Of a stretch of 64,000 nucleotides of DNA, positions 5,304-64,000 are shown one piece after another (position 1 is the stretch's first letter; every line of letters begins with the position of its first letter). The stretch covers positions 265,797-329,796 of the forward strand of contig JAPDJU010000005.1 in assembly GCA_029258915.1 (NCBI GenBank), given 5' to 3'. Position numbers and translations under genes: made by a program. The notes under the pieces are model-generated. The model was not told where the DNA came from and ran no database searches. It worked only from the letters and a program-made list of their open reading frames with translations. This stretch comes from Thermoproteota archaeon (GTDB lineage Archaea; Thermoproteota; Thermoprotei_A; EX4484-217-1).

Positions 5304-7502
5304 ATGAGTTTAAGAAAAGCAATATCCAAGACTGCCGCTATTGCTATCGCTGTAATTTTGATTGTAGTTGTTGTTGCTGGAATGTATTTCGCAATGGCAC
5401 CTACTCCAACACCGACACCATCGCCAACAACTACACCTCCAGTATCGCCAACTCCAACACCAACAAGTCCAACTCCGACACCACCGCCTCGTACTAAAAC
5501 AATGCATAAGAGAGTAATCTACATTATAAATAACGACGCTACTGCTAGAATTCAACTTTACAGGGCAGGTGTTGGTGATAGAGCAGCAATACCACCGGAT
5601 AGAATAAAAGATGTTGAAGGTACAATCTTAGGTAACTACCAGATAGTTGTCGAGAAAAGGCCGGACCTCGTACTATTAACAGTATACTTTGCTGTACTAA
5701 ATACTCAAAGAGAACCACTAAACAATGTATATGTTAGACAAGCTCTCTCATGGGCTGTACCTTATGACACCATATTTGAGAAAGTATATGCTGGCTTATT
5801 AGTACCATATTATGGTGTCATACCTAAAGGTCTACTTGGTTATACAGAGTATAAGATTTTCAAATACGAATTTAACATGGATAAGGCCAGCGAACTTATT
5901 GAAAAATCAGGTATTGATCCATCACAGTATACGCTAACTATATACTACAACATAGGCAATGACCCCAGAGCTCAAACTGCTGCTTTACTAGCCAACACTT
6001 GGGGTAGACTAGGATTTAATATTGTAATTCAGCCATTAAGCTGGCCTGTAGTACTACATAAGACAGCTCATGGAGACTATGACGTATGGCTTGTTGGCTG
6101 GGTACCAGACTACCTAGACCCTGACAACTATGCTGGCCCAATGTTCTATGGAGGTATAGAATTCGATGAGTTAAACGTCTTCACAGTTGAATCTTCAGCT
6201 GAAATATCTGCTCACTTAAAGAACGCTAAAGTATTTGATACTGAAGAAGCATGGGTTGTTGTTGGAGAAAAAGGCACCGGAGCAACTGTACCTGAACTAA
6301 CAGGCAAGAGAATAGTAGTAGTACAGTACATGCCAAACTGGGAGGAAACGTTTACTATAGAAAAAGCTATGGAGGAAGGTTGGGGCTTCTCATACATTAA
6401 CCCGGCATTTTACAGAAACGTTACAACAGATGCTCTAATAATTGCTGCTAGAAGAGTAGCTGACATATCACTTAGAAGACCTGTATGTGAAGCAATATTT
6501 AGAGCATCAAACTATGAAGCACCATTCATATGGCTAGGTCAATACATATTCTTAAGACACTATTGGAACTGGGTTGGAGGGATATACTATCACCCAACAT
6601 TAGTTCCCAGATTTGACTTAGTATGGGAATGGAGTGATGCCCCAGTAGCTGATACCGGTATTAAAGAGTATAAGAATGATCCAGAAACGTACGTTATAGT
6701 CACTATTGGATGGCCTGATACTTTTGACCCTGCTAAAAGCTATGAAACTTTTGGATGGCAAATATTCCATCAAGTAGGAGACCCCTTAGTAACATATTGG
6801 AAAGAAGAAACAGAAGAAGTTTCACCAGATCTAGCAGTAGCATGGGCATTCGATGAATCTGGAACTGAATGGTACTTTATAATTAGAGGAGGAGTTGTAG
6901 CCTACGATCCATGGAATGATAAAACATATCCTATTGACGCAACGGATGTAATGTTTGAAATATGGAGACTAGCCAGGTCACAGCTGGATCCAACATGGAT
7001 GATAGCAGAGTTCATAGACGTTAATGCATCTAAGGTGTTAAGTGAAGAGGAATTTGATACTTTATTAGCCGAGAAACCACTGAAAGTAGCCTGGAGAGGT
7101 AAATCCGGCGAAGTAAGTTCATTAGATGAACTATTAAGCTTCTTTGGATATGAAGGCGACACAGCAGGAGTAGTAATGTTGAAACTATATCACCCATATG
7201 TACCATTCTTAAGCATCTTAGCTGACCCATTTGTCATGGTTGTTCCCGCAGAATACATGCTCGGAGATAAGTATGAGGAAGTTATGGAAGCCGGTGAATG
7301 GGGTAAGAATCCATCAGCATGGGCAGCATATGTACAACCAGGAGAAGAAGATCCAATACACAAGCTATTAGCAGAAAAACTAGTAGGTACTGGACCATTC
7401 TACATAAAAGAATATGTTGAAGACAGCTACATAGTATTAGAGATTAACCCATACTACTGGAATGCAACATTATGGGAACAACTCTACGGATACAAACCAT
7501 AA
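5304..7502 (+). CDS. Family-5 (Dpp/Opp-class) extracellular solute-binding protein. It has an N-terminal transmembrane/signal anchor followed by a Thr/Pro-rich linker.
   Basis: N-terminal hydrophobic anchor, then PTPTPTPSPTTTPPVSPTPTPTSPTPTPPP, a linker of the kind found in Sulfolobales substrate-binding proteins, then about 650 aa of SBP_bac_5-like domain. It sits between two permease/ATPase sets. Confidence 0.85.
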   Translation: MSLRKAISKTAAIAIAVILIVVVVAGMYFAMAPTPTPTPSPTTTPPVSPTPTPTSPTPTPPPRTKTMHKRVIYIINNDATARIQLYRAGVGDRAAIPPDRIKDVEGTILGNYQIVVEKRPDLVLLTVYFAVLNTQREPLNNVYVRQALSWAVPYDTIFEKVYAGLLVPYYGVIPKGLLGYTEYKIFKYEFNMDKASELIEKSGIDPSQYTLTIYYNIGNDPRAQTAALLANTWGRLGFNIVIQPLSWPVVLHKTAHGDYDVWLVGWVPDYLDPDNYAGPMFYGGIEFDELNVFTVESSAEISAHLKNAKVFDTEEAWVVVGEKGTGATVPELTGKRIVVVQYMPNWEETFTIEKAMEEGWGFSYINPAFYRNVTTDALIIAARRVADISLRRPVCEAIFRASNYEAPFIWLGQYIFLRHYWNWVGGIYYHPTLVPRFDLVWEWSDAPVADTGIKEYKNDPETYVIVTIGWPDTFDPAKSYETFGWQIFHQVGDPLVTYWKEETEEVSPDLAVAWAFDESGTEWYFIIRGGVVAYDPWNDKTYPIDATDVMFEIWRLARSQLDPTWMIAEFIDVNASKVLSEEEFDTLLAEKPLKVAWRGKSGEVSSLDELLSFFGYEGDTAGVVMLKLYHPYVPFLSILADPFVMVVPAEYMLGDKYEEVMEAGEWGKNPSAWAAYVQPGEEDPIHKLLAEKLVGTGPFYIKEYVEDSYIVLEINPYYWNATLWEQLYGYKP
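5400..5501 (+). repeat. Low-complexity (ACN CCN)n tract encoding the Thr/Pro-rich linker of the binding protein.
   Basis: A direct read of ccaacaccgacacca... repeats. Its reverse complement produces the artefactual Trp/Cys-rich antisense ORF at 5310..5555. Confidence 0.8.
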
Positions 7503-57196: not shown

Positions 57197-59215
57197 ATGA
57201 CATCCGTAACCATTCTTGAGGAGTTTTCCCGTGACCAACTTCTTGATTTTTATAAGGATATGCTAAGAATAAGAGCTTTTGAAGATGAGACGTTAAAATA
57301 TTATGAGGTTGCTAAAGTCTATGGTATGCTTCATGTAGCCCATGGAAAAGAAGCTTTAGCTGTTGGATTTGCTAAAAACATCAAACCAAACGATTTCGTC
57401 TTAGCAAGCTACAGAGCACACGATCATGCATTAATGAAAGGCATTGTCATGTACCGTTTAGCAGCCGAACTTATGGGTAGAGCTACGGGAATAAATAAGG
57501 GCAAAGCGGGTTCAATGCACATAATGGATGATAAAACAAGGTTTCTCGAAGACTCCGTTGTAGGAGGCCAAATACCTATTGCTAATGGAATAGCATTTGC
57601 TTTCAAATATTTAGGAGAAAGCTCTATTGTCGTGTGTTTCTTCGGAGATGGAGCCTGCAATATAGGCGCTTTCCATGAAACATTAAACATGGCTTCCCTA
57701 TTGAAACTCCCCATAGTTTTCGTTGTAGAGAATAATAAATGGGCAATTACAACCCACGTTTCAATATCGACTTCAGTAGATAAAATAGTGAAAAGAGCAG
57801 TAGCATACAACATGATCGGAATGGAGGTTGACGGTACAGATGTTCTAGCAGTGTACAGAGTTGCAAAGAAGGCGATAAGCATAGCACGTAACGAGAAAAA
57901 GCCTGTCCTCGTGGAAGCACACACGGTTAGAATTAGAGGACATTACGACGGGGATATTCTTCAACCTTACAGGCCTAAAGAAGATATTGAACAACATCGT
58001 AAAAACGACCCTATACCTAAGTTCAGAGCTAAACTATATGAGCTTGGAGTACTAAATGAAAAGCTAGATAAAAAACTATGGAGAGAAGCTAAACTAGAAG
58101 CTGAAGAAGCATATAAAAAAGCCGAGAAAGACCCGTTCCCGCCACCCGAAGAGGCCTTAACAGATGTGTTCCCAGGAGAAGAGGCAAAGATACCTCCTGA
58201 ACTCACATTACTAAGTGTTAAAGATGTTGAGAAAGCAGAAAATATGAGGATGATAACCTACGCTAAGGCAATAAATGAAGCGCTGCATGAGGAAATGGAG
58301 AAAGACGATAAAATATTTATTCTAGGCGAAGATATTCGATGGGGAGGGGTCTATAGGGTCACTGAGGGTCTTCTTGAAAGATTTGGTCCTGAAAGGGTAA
58401 TAAACACCCCAATAGCTGAGGAAGCAATAACAGGCTTAGCCCTAGGAGCAGCAATGATGGGGTTAAGGCCTATAGTTGAACTAATGTACACCTTTACGTA
58501 CAATATAGCCATGGACCAAGTAACGAACCATATTGCAAGAATACCTTACATGTCAGGAGGCAAGTTTAAAGTACCATTAGTGATCAGATCGCCTAACTAT
58601 ACTTTAGCTTCAGTAGGTGCACAACATAGTTTCAGAAATGAAGCATGGTTTATGCACACACCAGGACTTAAAGTTGTTATAACTGCAACACCATTTGATG
58701 CTAAAGGCTTAATGAAAACAGCTATTAGAGAAAATAACCCAGTTCTATTCTTTGAACATGCAAGACTATACCATGTTAGAGGGCCTGTACCGGATAAAGA
58801 ATATTACATACCTTTAGGCAAAGCTGATGTTAAAAGAAAAGGCTCCGATGTAACAATAGTAACGTATTCCAGACCGCTATATGATGTTTTAAAGGCTGCG
58901 GAAGAGCTTTCAAAAGAGGGTATAGAGGCTGAAGTTATAGATTTAAGGTCGCTAGCACCATTAGATGAAGAAACCATAATATCCTCAGTTAAGAAGACCG
59001 GTAAAGTAGTTATTGTTGAAGAAGATGAAATAACATGCGGTGTTGGAGCAGAAATATCAGCATTGATAATGGAGAAAGCCTTTGATTACTTAGATGCTCC
59101 AGTAAAAAGAGTTGCTGCTCCAATGGTACCTATACCGTTCTCCAAACCATTAGAAGAATACGTAGTGCCTAACGCCAAGGACGTCATTAAAGCTGTTAAA
59201 GAATTGCTAGGCTAA
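57197..59215 (+). CDS. 2-oxoacid dehydrogenase E1 component with alpha and beta subunits fused in a single chain.
   Basis: The N-terminal half carries the TPP motif (FGDGACNIGAF, E1 alpha). The C-terminal half (from ..MRMITYAKAINEAL..) is E1 beta. The two are joined by an Ala/Glu/Pro-rich linker. Confidence 0.85.
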   Translation: MTSVTILEEFSRDQLLDFYKDMLRIRAFEDETLKYYEVAKVYGMLHVAHGKEALAVGFAKNIKPNDFVLASYRAHDHALMKGIVMYRLAAELMGRATGINKGKAGSMHIMDDKTRFLEDSVVGGQIPIANGIAFAFKYLGESSIVVCFFGDGACNIGAFHETLNMASLLKLPIVFVVENNKWAITTHVSISTSVDKIVKRAVAYNMIGMEVDGTDVLAVYRVAKKAISIARNEKKPVLVEAHTVRIRGHYDGDILQPYRPKEDIEQHRKNDPIPKFRAKLYELGVLNEKLDKKLWREAKLEAEEAYKKAEKDPFPPPEEALTDVFPGEEAKIPPELTLLSVKDVEKAENMRMITYAKAINEALHEEMEKDDKIFILGEDIRWGGVYRVTEGLLERFGPERVINTPIAEEAITGLALGAAMMGLRPIVELMYTFTYNIAMDQVTNHIARIPYMSGGKFKVPLVIRSPNYTLASVGAQHSFRNEAWFMHTPGLKVVITATPFDAKGLMKTAIRENNPVLFFEHARLYHVRGPVPDKEYYIPLGKADVKRKGSDVTIVTYSRPLYDVLKAAEELSKEGIEAEVIDLRSLAPLDEETIISSVKKTGKVVIVEEDEITCGVGAEISALIMEKAFDYLDAPVKRVAAPMVPIPFSKPLEEYVVPNAKDVIKAVKELLG

Positions 59216-59281: not shown

Positions 59282-60940
59282 ATGGTTAAAGAAGTTATTG
59301 TACCCAGAATGGGAGATGTACCGGAAGCTACCATTCTTAAATGGCTTAAAAAAGAAGGAGACAAAGTTAGTAAAGGAGAACCTGTAGTTGAAGTAGACTT
59401 GTTTAAAGCAACTAAAAGGCTTGAAGCACCTGTTTCAGGTTTTCTAGCTAAAATTTTAGCTAAAGAAAACGATGTTGTTGCTATTGGCTCGCCTGTTGCA
59501 TTAATTGCCGAAAGTGCTGAAGAATTAGAGAAAATTAAAGGTAAACCCCCAGTAGAGAAAAAGCCTAAACCAGTGCCAATTGCTCCTAAAGTTGAAGCAG
59601 CTAAACCACCAATTGAAATTCCTAAGAAAATAAGAATATCCCCAAGAGCAAGAAAGCTTGCTGAAAAATATGGAATAGACATAACAAAGATTAAAGGTAC
59701 AGGCCCGGGAGGAAGAATTGTTGAAAAAGACGTTCTAAGATATATTGAGGAAATGAAAAAACTTGAAGCTATAGCGCCAAGGGTTAAAGAAGTTAGAAAA
59801 CTTATCGGTAAAAGAAGAACTATAGCTTGGCGTCTTAGTGAAGAATGGAGGACAGCGCCCCACATCAACATAGCAGGTAAAGTGGATTTAAGTAAAGCCC
59901 ATGCTTTCAGAAAGATTCTCAACGAGCAATTAGAGAAGAAAGGTGTACATGTTACATTCACCGACCTATTTATAAAGGCAGCTGCCCTAGCTGCTGCAGA
60001 AGTTCCAGAAGTAAATGCTTCGTTAGAAGGTGAGGAAATAAAGATCTATGAAGACATTAACATAAACATCGCTGTAGCAACCCCCGAGGGACTTGTAGTA
60101 CCTGTAATTAGGAATCCCCATAAGAAAACATTCGAACAGTTAGCTAAAGAAAGAGAGGACATTGTTAGAAGAGCTAGAGAAGGTAAACTAACAGAAAAGG
60201 ATGTTTTAGGAGGAACAATAACGCTATCAAATATGGGAATGTATGATGTAGTGTTCTTCTCAGCAGTCCTCAACCCGCCGCAAGCTGTCCTTGTAGCTAT
60301 AGGTAAAGCAGAAAACGTCCCAGTAGTGGAAGGCGATACAGTTAAAATAAAGCCTATGGCATACATTAATGTTATAGCAGATCATAGAATAGTAGATGGA
60401 GCAGTAGCTGCTAATTATCTTAAAGCGATTAAAGATAAACTTGAGAATCCTGAAAAACTCTTATTAGAGAATGAAAAAAATTTACTAAGAAAACCTATAG
60501 TTCCTATAGAAAAAACATTGCCTGTAACTAAAGAAGTTAAGGCAGAAAAAGCAGTAGAGTATAAACCTTATCTACGAGCTGAAGAACTTGAAGAACCTAG
60601 AAGGATAGCTGAAGAATACATGAAAGCCATAAGGCAGTACTATAAGTTTGACAAAGAAGCTGCTCAAGCATTCTTCAGGTTTTCAGGAGCAGCAGTGAGA
60701 AGCAATGTACTGCCTGAGAAAATAAAACATCTAATAACTATTGCTGTTAGTGTAGCAATACATTGTAAAGAATGTGTAGCAATACATGTAAGAGACGCTT
60801 TAGAAGCCGGTGCAACGCCGGAAGAAATAATTGATGCAGTAACGCCAGCAATACTTCTTTCAGGCGGGCCTGGAACAACAATGCTAGACATAGTCTTTAA
60901 GAGTATTGAAGCATTTGCGAAGGAAAGAAAAACTAAATAA
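59282..60940 (+). CDS. Dihydrolipoamide acyltransferase E2 (lipoyl domain, peripheral subunit-binding domain, catalytic domain) fused to a C-terminal AhpD/carboxymuconolactone-decarboxylase-family domain.
   Basis: Lipoyl domain, peripheral subunit-binding domain (GTGPGGRIVEKDV), catalytic DHRIVDGA, then after a linker ..IHCKECVAIH.., an AhpD-type CxxCxxxH motif. Confidence 0.85.
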   Translation: MVKEVIVPRMGDVPEATILKWLKKEGDKVSKGEPVVEVDLFKATKRLEAPVSGFLAKILAKENDVVAIGSPVALIAESAEELEKIKGKPPVEKKPKPVPIAPKVEAAKPPIEIPKKIRISPRARKLAEKYGIDITKIKGTGPGGRIVEKDVLRYIEEMKKLEAIAPRVKEVRKLIGKRRTIAWRLSEEWRTAPHINIAGKVDLSKAHAFRKILNEQLEKKGVHVTFTDLFIKAAALAAAEVPEVNASLEGEEIKIYEDININIAVATPEGLVVPVIRNPHKKTFEQLAKEREDIVRRAREGKLTEKDVLGGTITLSNMGMYDVVFFSAVLNPPQAVLVAIGKAENVPVVEGDTVKIKPMAYINVIADHRIVDGAVAANYLKAIKDKLENPEKLLLENEKNLLRKPIVPIEKTLPVTKEVKAEKAVEYKPYLRAEELEEPRRIAEEYMKAIRQYYKFDKEAAQAFFRFSGAAVRSNVLPEKIKHLITIAVSVAIHCKECVAIHVRDALEAGATPEEIIDAVTPAILLSGGPGTTMLDIVFKSIEAFAKERKTK

Positions 60941-62218: not shown

Positions 62219-63040
62219 ATGGTTTTATGGAGGATAGCTTTGACAACTGTAATAGAAATCTCAGGTTTACTTGAAAAACAATTACAGCTTCTTGTTGATA
62301 TAGGGTTGTATTCTTCAAAAACCGAAGCTGTAAGAGATGCTGTACGTAGACTTCTAAACTCGGTAAACATAGCTGATGTAGCAGTGAAAATTTATAGTCA
62401 AGGAAGAATCTCTTTAGCTTACGCTTCAGAATTAGCTGAACAATCTATCCCCGAATTCTTCATAAAATTATTAGGTAAAGGAATAGTACCTAGGCTCGTC
62501 AGTTCAAGAAAAAACGTAGAAGAAGTTGTTGAGAACATCGATAAGAAAAAAGTTTTAGTCTTCGACGTAAGCTCGCTATATGTAACGTATTTAAGCGAAA
62601 CATTGGATGTATTTAGAAGAATATTAACGTACCTTAGTGAAAAGAGAAACGTAAGAAATATAGTGTCGCCTGACACAATACTTCACCTTAAATTCATTGA
62701 ATTAAAAAGGCTAATAAGTTTTGGCCATAGAAGCATAGAATTGCCATTAACTGTAGCTAATGTGGATGCTAATGAGTTTAAGAAATTTAAAAACAAATTC
62801 ATTAAAGAGCAAAGCCTTACAACAGCTGAGATGACTACACAATATTTAGCCTATAGGTTAAAAGCCATTTTAGTAACGGATGATTATAAAGCATTAGAGA
62901 TAGCAAATAAAACCAACGTATATGCTATTTCTACAATGTCTCTTTTAAACTATGCAAAGTACCATAGGATAATAAGTGATGTTAAATACGCTGAAGCTCG
63001 TGAAAAACTTGAAACCATATATTCTATGGCTACTGGGTGA
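62219..63040 (+). CDS. Single-chain fusion of RHH (CopG-like) + UPF0175 (antitoxin-type HTH) + DUF3368 (PIN-like nuclease).
   Basis: RHH: ISGLLEKQLQLLVDIGLYSSKTEAVRDAVRRLL. UPF0175: GRISLAYASELAEQSIPEFFIKLLGKGI. PIN-like: KVLVFDVSSL ... LVTDDYKALEIA. Confidence 0.6.
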   Translation: MVLWRIALTTVIEISGLLEKQLQLLVDIGLYSSKTEAVRDAVRRLLNSVNIADVAVKIYSQGRISLAYASELAEQSIPEFFIKLLGKGIVPRLVSSRKNVEEVVENIDKKKVLVFDVSSLYVTYLSETLDVFRRILTYLSEKRNVRNIVSPDTILHLKFIELKRLISFGHRSIELPLTVANVDANEFKKFKNKFIKEQSLTTAEMTTQYLAYRLKAILVTDDYKALEIANKTNVYAISTMSLLNYAKYHRIISDVKYAEAREKLETIYSMATG

Positions 63041-63046
63041 GGATCA

Positions 63047-63604
63047 TTGGAAGACTTAGTGATAGCTGTAGATGTTTCATTGAGCATGAAAGCAAGCGAC
63101 TATATACCTAACAGAATGGAAGCAGCTAAAAGAGCAATATTATCACTAGTGACAGCAAAGCTTGAGAAAAACGTTGAAGACCGTATAGGAGTAGTAGCTT
63201 TCTATGGGCGCTCACTGCCAATAATAGATCTCACTAGGAACAAAGAATTATTGATATCAGTAATTAGGCAACTACGAGTGTTAGGAGAAGCAACCGCACC
63301 AGGGGATGGGCTTAAAGAAGCACTTTACATGCTGAGAGGAAGATGGCCGAAAATAGGTAAGGAAAGGGTGTTAATAGTTACTGATGGTACATTTAATGAA
63401 GGAATACCTTTAGATGTTGTAGCTGAATATGCTGCGAGAAGAAACGTTATTGTGGACTTCTTAACGCTAGGTAAGCTAACAAGCTACGATAGAACAATGA
63501 TTTCAAGAACCTTAAAACTAACTGGTGGAGTACATGAACATGCTGGAACAACATCGGAATTGATAAATAAAGCTATCAAATTAGGTATTAGAGAAATTCC
63601 ATAA
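63047..63604 (+). CDS. Small cytosolic von Willebrand factor A (vWA) domain protein.
   Basis: MIDAS motif (DVSLSM) ... VLIVTDGTFNEG. Confidence 0.7.
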   Translation: MEDLVIAVDVSLSMKASDYIPNRMEAAKRAILSLVTAKLEKNVEDRIGVVAFYGRSLPIIDLTRNKELLISVIRQLRVLGEATAPGDGLKEALYMLRGRWPKIGKERVLIVTDGTFNEGIPLDVVAEYAARRNVIVDFLTLGKLTSYDRTMISRTLKLTGGVHEHAGTTSELINKAIKLGIREIP

Positions 63605-64000
63605 TAGCCTTAGAAAGATCACCATATTTTATGTGCATAAAATATCCTTTAACAGTTCTAAGAATTTCTCTTATAATAGCTATGTCTGTTGGATAAAGCC
63701 TGCTAAAAGCAAAGAAATCAACTCTAACATTATGAAGTCTTAAGGAACTTATAGTGTACCTAGGATCGATACCTGTGTTAAAAGTTCCATCAGTAATAAC
63801 TAATATCCTCTTTTTAACACCATCCCTTGAAAGATCCTTAAGCATTCTATAAGCTTCCACAATACCATCCCCTAAAGCAGTACCGCTACCTAAAGGCCTT
63901 AAACTATCAATAGCCTTCAAAAGGTCCTTAATACTGTTCGTTAAATCTATTATCGGAGCAGAATATTCATAAAACCCGACAATACCTACTCTAGCAAGTA
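63588..64000 (-). CDS. Paralogous vWA domain protein. Only the 3' part is in the window; the 5' end runs off the edge.
   Basis: ..RILVITDGTFNTGIDP.. is collinear with the plus-strand vWA gene. The frame stays open to base 64000. The 3' ends of the two genes overlap by 17 nt. Confidence 0.6.
   Translation of the reverse strand, partial: LARVGIVGFYEYSAPIIDLTNSIKDLLKAIDSLRPLGSGTALGDGIVEAYRMLKDLSRDGVKKRILVITDGTFNTGIDPRYTISSLRLHNVRVDFFAFSRLYPTDIAIIREILRTVKGYFMHIKYGDLSKAIMEFL

Follow-up and report, generated by a model that had tools for sequence, protein, structure and literature searches.

Toxin-antitoxin (TA) modules are commonly regarded as two-gene units that are mobile, selfish or serve defence. 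UPF0175 antitoxins occur exclusively with PIN proteins of the COG2405 group (PMC5499597; PMC2701414), and the UPF0175/DUF3368 pair is listed in PADLOC as the candidate system PDC-S70. This study concerns a 64,000-nucleotide stretch of contig JAPDJU010000005.1 from a Thermoproteota archaeon (hereafter the window), in which both halves of such a pair are encoded by one gene (62240..63040, + strand). This is a real, selected gene, in which an antitoxin made up of a ribbon-helix-helix (RHH) domain and a UPF0175 domain is joined in frame to a PIN domain of the COG2405/DUF3368 type, and a small von Willebrand factor A (vWA) gene is its invariant operon partner in hyperthermophilic archaea, not an incidental neighbour. 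The fused protein may be a domesticated single-chain TA complex, serving as a DNA-binding regulator and latent RNase together with its vWA partners; this reading was given a probability of about 0.5, its mechanism being inferred and the gene, the fusion and the operon linkage observed.

The fusion is not confined to the window. A word-indexed search retrieved six homologues of 251-273 aa, all full length and ranging from 99% down to 31% identity, and the fused frame was intact in the 99%-identical protein, which comes from an independent data set, as well as in the homologues at 88, 72, 69, 52 and 31%. An exhaustive profile search of 1.84 billion representatives gave 106 matches, of which about 40 (representatives of 50% clusters) were full length at 250-278 aa and the others were free-standing halves. 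A scan of GTDB species genomes, made with one peptide pattern that did not pick up Acidilobus saccharovorans, found 42 loci in Desulfurococcales, Acidilobaceae, Pyrodictiaceae, Caldisphaera, an Aeropyrum sp., Hestiella and Marsarchaeota; the unique fused loci compared below number 38. A cultured member is nevertheless available in ASAC_1217 of A. saccharovorans 345-15, annotated as hypothetical or as 'PIN domain-containing'; other members are annotated as 'hypothetical protein' or misnamed as ParD antitoxin.

The only argument for an assembly or sequencing artefact, or for a recent pseudogene-like read-through of a two-gene cassette, is that UPF0175 and DUF3368 are expected beforehand to be encoded separately. 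The likelihood of either was judged negligible, and the comparative data refute both. A missed stop or frameshift between the two parts had been raised as a possibility in a preliminary reading of the DNA made without database searches (the sequence-only reading); none was found, and the same single continuous frame runs through the window, the independent assemblies, the roughly 40 representatives and all 38 unique loci from many species. Purifying selection spans the junction as well, and the AlphaFold2 (AF2) model described below is confident through it.

The sequence-only reading had placed the gene at 62219..63040 (+), an open reading frame (ORF) of 273 aa. The single frame and all of the peptides quoted from it stand, but the start has to be moved. 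Most likely, translation begins at the TTG at 62240 and ends at a TGA, giving a protein of 266 aa. A Shine-Dalgarno-like GGAGG (62229..62233, +) lies 6 nt ahead of this TTG and is kept as TGGAGGATA in locus L001 and as TGGTGATAA in L007. Both the TTG and the GGAGG are conserved in these two orthologous loci and the ATG at 62219 in neither, while the homologues P0003-P0006 begin at the equivalent downstream position, M/L-TTVIEISG. The seven in-frame codons from the ATG (62219..62239, +), which stem from a mechanical ORF call and overlap the GGAGG, are probably not translated. Residues are nevertheless numbered throughout after the 273-aa ORF.

The domains proposed in the sequence-only reading, namely a CopG-type RHH at the N-terminus, a UPF0175-like segment and a DUF3368/PIN-like domain, are sub-threshold on the single sequence, and family-level evidence was therefore needed; it bore out all three. 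Against Pfam, the window protein scored 26.3 bits for UPF0175 (residues 54-91), just under the gathering threshold of 27.9, and 18.6 bits for RHH_8 (residues 20-49), with no match to DUF3368 (PF11848). NCBIfam gave only faint matches to ParD-antitoxin and PIN-like (PRK12496) models and contained nothing informative on either the fused protein or the vWA proteins. Across the 37 family members used for the Pfam searches and for structure prediction, UPF0175 was matched by 13, RHH_1 or RHH_8 by 12 (sub-threshold) and the PIN model PF20698 by 10 (best E 2.9e-12), while PF01850 was matched neither by these nor by the window protein.

The ParD/CopG-type RHH domain covers residues 8-49 (62240..62365, +). 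A profile of the family aligned the signature G-x-Y-x-S-x-S-E-x-V-R with 6x0a and 5ceg, both of them structures of ParD/CopG antitoxins (E about 5e-4). It is followed by the helix-turn-helix (HTH) antitoxin domain UPF0175 (COG2886; residues 50-91, 62366..62491, +), which ends in a conserved P-x-L-G motif, by a linker helix (residues 92-111, 62492..62551, +) and by the PIN domain (residues 112-273, 62552..63037, +). The assignment of the last to the COG2405/DUF3368 type draws on the predicted fold, a profile match to the structure 2mdt (E 3e-3 by sequence), PF20698, alignment to free-standing PIN proteins and precomputed DUF3368 matches on ASAC_1217, P0003 and the homologue in L053.

An AF2 model built from the alignment of 37 sequences (pLDDT 91.8, pTM 0.86) replaced one built from seven (pLDDT 67). 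Its N-terminal half is helical, beginning with an unstructured strand and two helices, as expected of an RHH domain modelled as a monomer, and its C-terminal domain shows the alternating strand-helix (beta-alpha-beta) order. The linker forms a helix just ahead of the first PIN strand, and the pTM points to a fixed arrangement between the domains. The best Foldseek match of the model in the Protein Data Bank (PDB) was SSO1118 (2mdt; TM-score 0.70 on the target, probability 1.0), which is listed under COG2405/DUF3368 (Matelska et al., 2017; PMC5499597). Nob1, PAE2754, VapC4, Rv0301 and HARP RNase P were matched further down. An identification of the PIN domain with Nob1 was considered and dropped, the similarity to PRK12496 and 2lcq being weak.

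Among free-standing proteins, those most closely related to the N-terminal half are UPF0175 proteins of 106-115 aa (E about 1e-19), which score 42 bits for UPF0175 and so pass the Pfam threshold. Their genes are followed, with an overlap of a few bases, by a gene for a DUF3368-type PIN protein of 160-161 aa, for example in Methanoperedens genomes (L045, L046) and on metagenome contigs (L051, L052). Residues 1-100 of the fused protein are 37-41% identical to the free-standing antitoxins of 106 aa over the RHH, the HTH and the P-x-L-G tail. These antitoxins contain an RHH, an HTH, the P-x-L-G motif and a tail of roughly 20 residues, and the alignment stops at the end of the linker. The RHH hence does not count as a third module of the fusion, since the free-standing antitoxins of this subfamily already hold both RHH and UPF0175. 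On these alignments the linker helix is the former antitoxin tail, its end apparently joined to the first PIN strand roughly at the old stop/start overlap. On the other side of the junction, the signature D...T/S-x-x-E...DD...S/T is common to the fused PIN domain and to the 160-aa PIN partners. The homologies thus support an origin by fusion of the usual two-gene UPF0175/DUF3368 cassette, as the sequence-only reading had supposed. A PIN segment related to that of the fused family was also seen at the C-terminus (residues 1029-1152) of P0060, a 1282-aa protein of the representative library.

Conservation was assessed over 71 unique members. The RHH is the most conserved part (58% mean pairwise identity), the PIN domain has 24% and the linker is least conserved (17%); P91 of the P-x-L-G motif is invariant. 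Against the closest locus (88% identity, dS 0.35), dN/dS is 0.17 overall, 0.32 in UPF0175 and 0.19 in the PIN domain, with dN = 0 in the RHH. All parts of the fused protein, the junction included, are thus under purifying selection.

Within the PIN domain, the acidic positions that the sequence-only reading had expected were recovered by alignment. The acidic residue after the first PIN strand, D116 (codon 62564..62566, +), is D in 60 and E in 7 of the 71 members. In the T/S-x-x-E motif of the active-site helix, T201-T-A-E204 (62819..62830, +), T201 is T or S in 67, and E204 is E in 67 and D in 4. Of the acidic pair after the third strand, D221-D222 (62879..62884, +), D222 is D in 70 and E in 1, and D221 is acidic in 58. 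Acidic residues are hence found at positions 116, 204 and 222 in 94%, 100% and 100% of members, and T/S at 201 in 94%.

It may be argued that the PIN domain is catalytically dead and that the protein is an RHH/HTH transcription factor in which the PIN serves as a scaffold for oligomerisation or vWA docking. The far stronger conservation of the RHH would suit this, and the second (E about 40) and fourth canonical PIN acidic residues are not conserved in the fused family. Matelska et al. describe the active site of COG2405 as variable and list members including 2mdt with incomplete active sites (PMC5499597), and degenerate PIN scaffolds such as Utp23 are known. Such a loss is nonetheless doubtful: D116, T201, E204 and D222 have been kept while the rest of the domain drifted to 24% identity, and the free-standing DUF3368 partners show this D/E/D set without exception. 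The PIN domain is therefore likely to be catalytically competent, and the retained active-site residues suggest that a nuclease function has probably been kept.

The second part of the main finding is the link with vWA genes. The sequence-only reading had noted a pair of convergent vWA paralogs directly downstream of the fused gene, and both were located. The first, vWA-A (63047..63604, +), starts 6 nt past the stop of the fused gene and encodes a minimal cytoplasmic protein of 185 aa (VWA_2, 66.6 bits) with DVSLS as its MIDAS (metal ion-dependent adhesion site). The second, vWA-B (63588..64000, -), is open to the end of the window, its 5' end lying beyond; its orthologues have 166-183 aa and match VWA_2/VWA, and its MIDAS, DVSSS, is intact in this clade. 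The vWA-B gene call in the window's clade begins at an internal ATG that cuts off the MIDAS; its true start lies further upstream, because the frame is open there and encodes LIEDLILAVDVSSSM (L001, 7849-7905, -).

ORFs were called in all fetched loci and searched with profiles built from the window's neighbours. Each of the 38 unique fused loci proved to contain a minimal vWA gene with a MIDAS no more than 200 bp away, and in 36 of them it is directly downstream on the same strand, 4- or 8-nt overlaps being common; a second paralog is present in 20. In A. saccharovorans a single vWA gene follows ASAC_1217 at a distance of 75 bp. Conversely, all five split-cassette loci inspected (L044-L046, L051, L052) lack a vWA gene. 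A search from the vWA side led back to the same arrangement, with homologues of vWA-A at 46% identity again flanking a fused gene of 264 aa. When the neighbouring ORFs were clustered, three families recurred across otherwise differing loci: the fused gene, the vWA and a large protein considered below.

The vWA proteins are bare domains of about 185 aa (range 166-210) without signal peptides. The MIDAS motif D-x-S-x-S is kept everywhere in vWA-A, while in vWA-B it is degenerate in most clades. The best PDB sequence matches of vWA-A were the vWA domain of Rpn10 and BatB. An assignment of the paralogs to Rpn10 or to the TFIIH subunits p44/p34 was tried and dropped, as the Rpn10 match and the weak Ssl1/Tfb4 matches are cross-matches within the clan that score under the generic VWA models. 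Two variants of the arrangement were also recorded. In a Desulfurococcales metagenome-assembled genome the fused gene is followed by an ORF of 781 aa combining vWA, PUA-like and PAPS-reductase parts (L047, 976-3321, +), which may be a true fusion or a read-through. In two loci with the order vWA-fused gene-vWA, an RHH protein of 62-65 aa that matches the N-terminal RHH of the fused family is encoded just past the second vWA gene (L009, 4920-5117, +; L053, 5681-5869, +).

The mobile, patchy, multi-copy distribution typical of TA loci was not seen. Throughout the lineage the fused gene belongs to an operon, apparently as a single copy, and its context is one of housekeeping genes, beside 2-oxoacid dehydrogenase and radical-SAM genes in the window and near MoeA and a ribosomal-protein operon in A. 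saccharovorans, and a neighbour-joining tree of the family groups its members largely by taxon. These observations bear on the proposal that the family is a single-chain TA system for defence or abortive infection, in which a phage or stress signal, perceived by the antitoxin half or by the vWA protein, would free the PIN RNase to arrest the cell. TA modules fused into one gene are known, some of them with a role in phage defence (PMC11980606), the PIN triad is conserved, and both halves match the PADLOC models of the two-gene PDC-S70 cassette, at 31.7 bits in ASAC_1217 and weakly (15 bits) in the window protein. Yet PDC-S70 is the sole PADLOC match and the vWA proteins have none, no relatives of the fused protein were found among the 2.9 million viral contigs of IMG/VR, the loci lie amid housekeeping genes and not in defence islands, the tree roughly tracks taxonomy, and the link to vWA and surface-protein genes is kept across deep lineages, unlike that of patchy defence genes. 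A defence role is accordingly unlikely.

In about 60% of the fused loci the operon adjoins a gene for a large protein of 787-1545 aa (for example L001, 8016-10379; L004, 7344-11219, -; L032, 1995-5831). These proteins combine a signal peptide and a long ectodomain with a coiled coil and a single transmembrane helix, both C-terminal, and a basic tail (RR/KP), and their C-termini weakly resemble the surface-layer (S-layer) anchor SlaB (E 1.6e-4); by these features they are probably S-layer or stalk proteins of uncultured lineages. The neighbour in another clade is a secreted S8 protease of 1226 aa. Judging from the syntenic loci L001 and L057, the corresponding gene of the window would sit past 64000. 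Caldisphaera, Hestiella, Marsarchaeota G2 and A. saccharovorans lack the large neighbour, so the surface protein is an accessory and not a core association. A more specific proposal is that the fused protein, the MIDAS-bearing vWA and the mostly MIDAS-degenerate vWA form an undescribed module of Desulfurococcales-type archaea and Marsarchaeota, a vWA-gated regulator/RNase that would control the mRNA or the transcription of the adjacent membrane-anchored S-layer-like protein. In this full form the proposal is rather unlikely.

For the broader reading, of a domesticated single-chain TA complex, the following course of events can be envisaged. The fused protein would dimerise through its RHH and PIN domains, and its N-terminal half would bind DNA, both expected by analogy with RHH antitoxins and PIN toxins. 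The strong constraint on the N-terminal half suggests operon regulation, so that the RHH/HTH half may control the vWA operon to which it belongs and perhaps also the surface-protein gene alongside. With the antitoxin tail retained and covalently attached, and with the high pTM of the model, the PIN RNase is probably restrained in cis. As degradation of a separate antitoxin could no longer free the nuclease, its release or targeting would depend on the vWA partner, which, being co-translated, might release, target or scaffold it, the MIDAS perhaps clamping an acidic residue that belongs to the fused protein or to a client. The sequence-only reading had suggested a domesticated or autoregulated nuclease or a new regulatory architecture; domestication is favoured by the core-gene context and the vWA linkage, and a new regulatory architecture by the vWA linkage.

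Several points besides the gaps in the PIN active site weigh against this reading. Occlusion of the active site in cis is assumed, and a physical interaction between the fused protein and vWA is inferred from gene order only. The ribbon of the RHH, T-T-V-I-E-I-S, has no basic residue and one conserved acidic residue, which is unusual for a ribbon that reads DNA. The surface-protein gene, a possible target, occurs at part of the loci only. An inverted-repeat test across the family gave modest enrichment (7.2 against 5.5-5.8 matched bases), and the region upstream of the gene in the window has a weak palindrome only and no convincing operator. Likewise, no conserved operator emerged in the window's clade, either from aligning the regions upstream of three orthologous genes or from searching for repeats. 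Elsewhere, strong palindromes with a common GGAATCC core lie 25-50 bp before the start codon of the fused gene in L038, L024 and L047, that of L038 being CTTGGAATCCCCCGGGGGATTCCAAG (about 5930-5955), with perfect 13-nt arms CTTGGAATCCCCC/GGGGGATTCCAAG. These palindromes are candidates for a clade-specific operator.

Some further features of the surrounding genes may be recorded. Upstream in the window, a gene at 59282-60940 (+) encodes a lipoyl acyltransferase E2 of 552 aa with an additional C-terminal CMD/AhpD-like domain containing the CxxC motif HCKEC; its orthologues comprise Biotin_lipoyl, E3_binding, 2-oxoacid_dh and CMD. A lipoyl E2 reduces AhpD in the mycobacterial AhpC/AhpD/DlaT peroxidase relay, to which the E2-CMD fusion could be functionally related by analogy. 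The gene before it (57197-59215, +) encodes a single-chain E1 of 672 aa whose orthologues match E1_dh, Transket_pyr and Transketolase_C, a composition suggesting that the alpha and beta subunits of this 2-oxoacid dehydrogenase component are joined in one protein. In L034 (7407-12298), L024, L038, L026 and L053-L055, a PAPS_reduct and 4Fe-4S protein of 671-737 aa is encoded downstream of the vWA gene(s), with an Lhr-like helicase (DEAD and DEAD_assoc) further on in most of them; the arrangement may be due to a functional link or to synteny within lineages. About 4-5 kb downstream, L001 (12193-12633, -) and L057 (11026-11728, -) carry a PF01850 PIN gene of ordinary appearance (146 aa) and, upstream of it, a small partner (95-97 aa); in the window these would fall past the end.

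A described system that bears on the vWA proteins is ArnA-ArnB of Sulfolobus acidocaldarius, which represses the archaellum; in it a vWA protein of the cytoplasm, its MIDAS intact, acts together with a regulator, and a glutamate of the partner has been proposed to bind the MIDAS (PMC6509490). It offers a crenarchaeal precedent for a MIDAS-vWA protein in a regulatory pair that governs a surface structure. The architectures are not homologous: ArnB carries additional domains, a beta-sandwich and a four-helix bundle, and is controlled by phosphorylation, whereas the vWA proteins here are bare; the partner of ArnB is an FHA/zinc-finger protein in place of an RHH-HTH-PIN protein. ArnB was not among the PDB sequence matches of vWA-A. 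VapBC modules resemble the fused family in pairing a DNA-binding antitoxin (RHH or AbrB) with a PIN RNase and in the fold matches to VapC4, PAE2754 and Rv0301, but they are not linked to vWA genes; the fused family has a COG2405-like PIN, an extra HTH and fused genes.

Both halves are homologous to the UPF0175/DUF3368 type II TA cassettes, and the best structural match, 2mdt, is listed under COG2405. These cassettes consist of two overlapping genes without vWA and are mobile and patchy, in contrast to one polypeptide that is always co-operonic with vWA and belongs to a core genome, tracking taxonomy. Fused toxin-antitoxin proteins are known as well, CapRel and EzeT being examples. In others, such as ParD-ParE, YefM-YoeB and RelE-YiaG (PMC11980606), antitoxin and toxin likewise share one chain, so that regulation cannot use the selective loss of a separate antitoxin protein. 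The toxins of such fused proteins are of the BECR/RelE, RSH or zeta types, whereas the family described here has a PIN domain, an obligate vWA gene and no defence context that could be found.

If the domesticated-complex reading is true, the family would be a clear case of a TA module whose genes merged and which became established, by vertical inheritance, in a cellular operon alongside unrelated vWA partners, and a testable example both of TA domestication and of nuclease control by a covalently attached inhibitor. It would also place two orphan archaeal vWA proteins in a context for the first time, and possibly the control of surface-layer genes in Crenarchaeota as well. Because the genome of A. 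saccharovorans is complete, ASAC_1217 gives later work a fully known sequence and neighbourhood to start from. The literature searches made turned up no account of the fused lineage or of its linkage to vWA genes. Set beside the known systems, then, fused TA proteins and the UPF0175/DUF3368 pair are already familiar, and what this study adds is the obligate linkage of the fused lineage to vWA genes.

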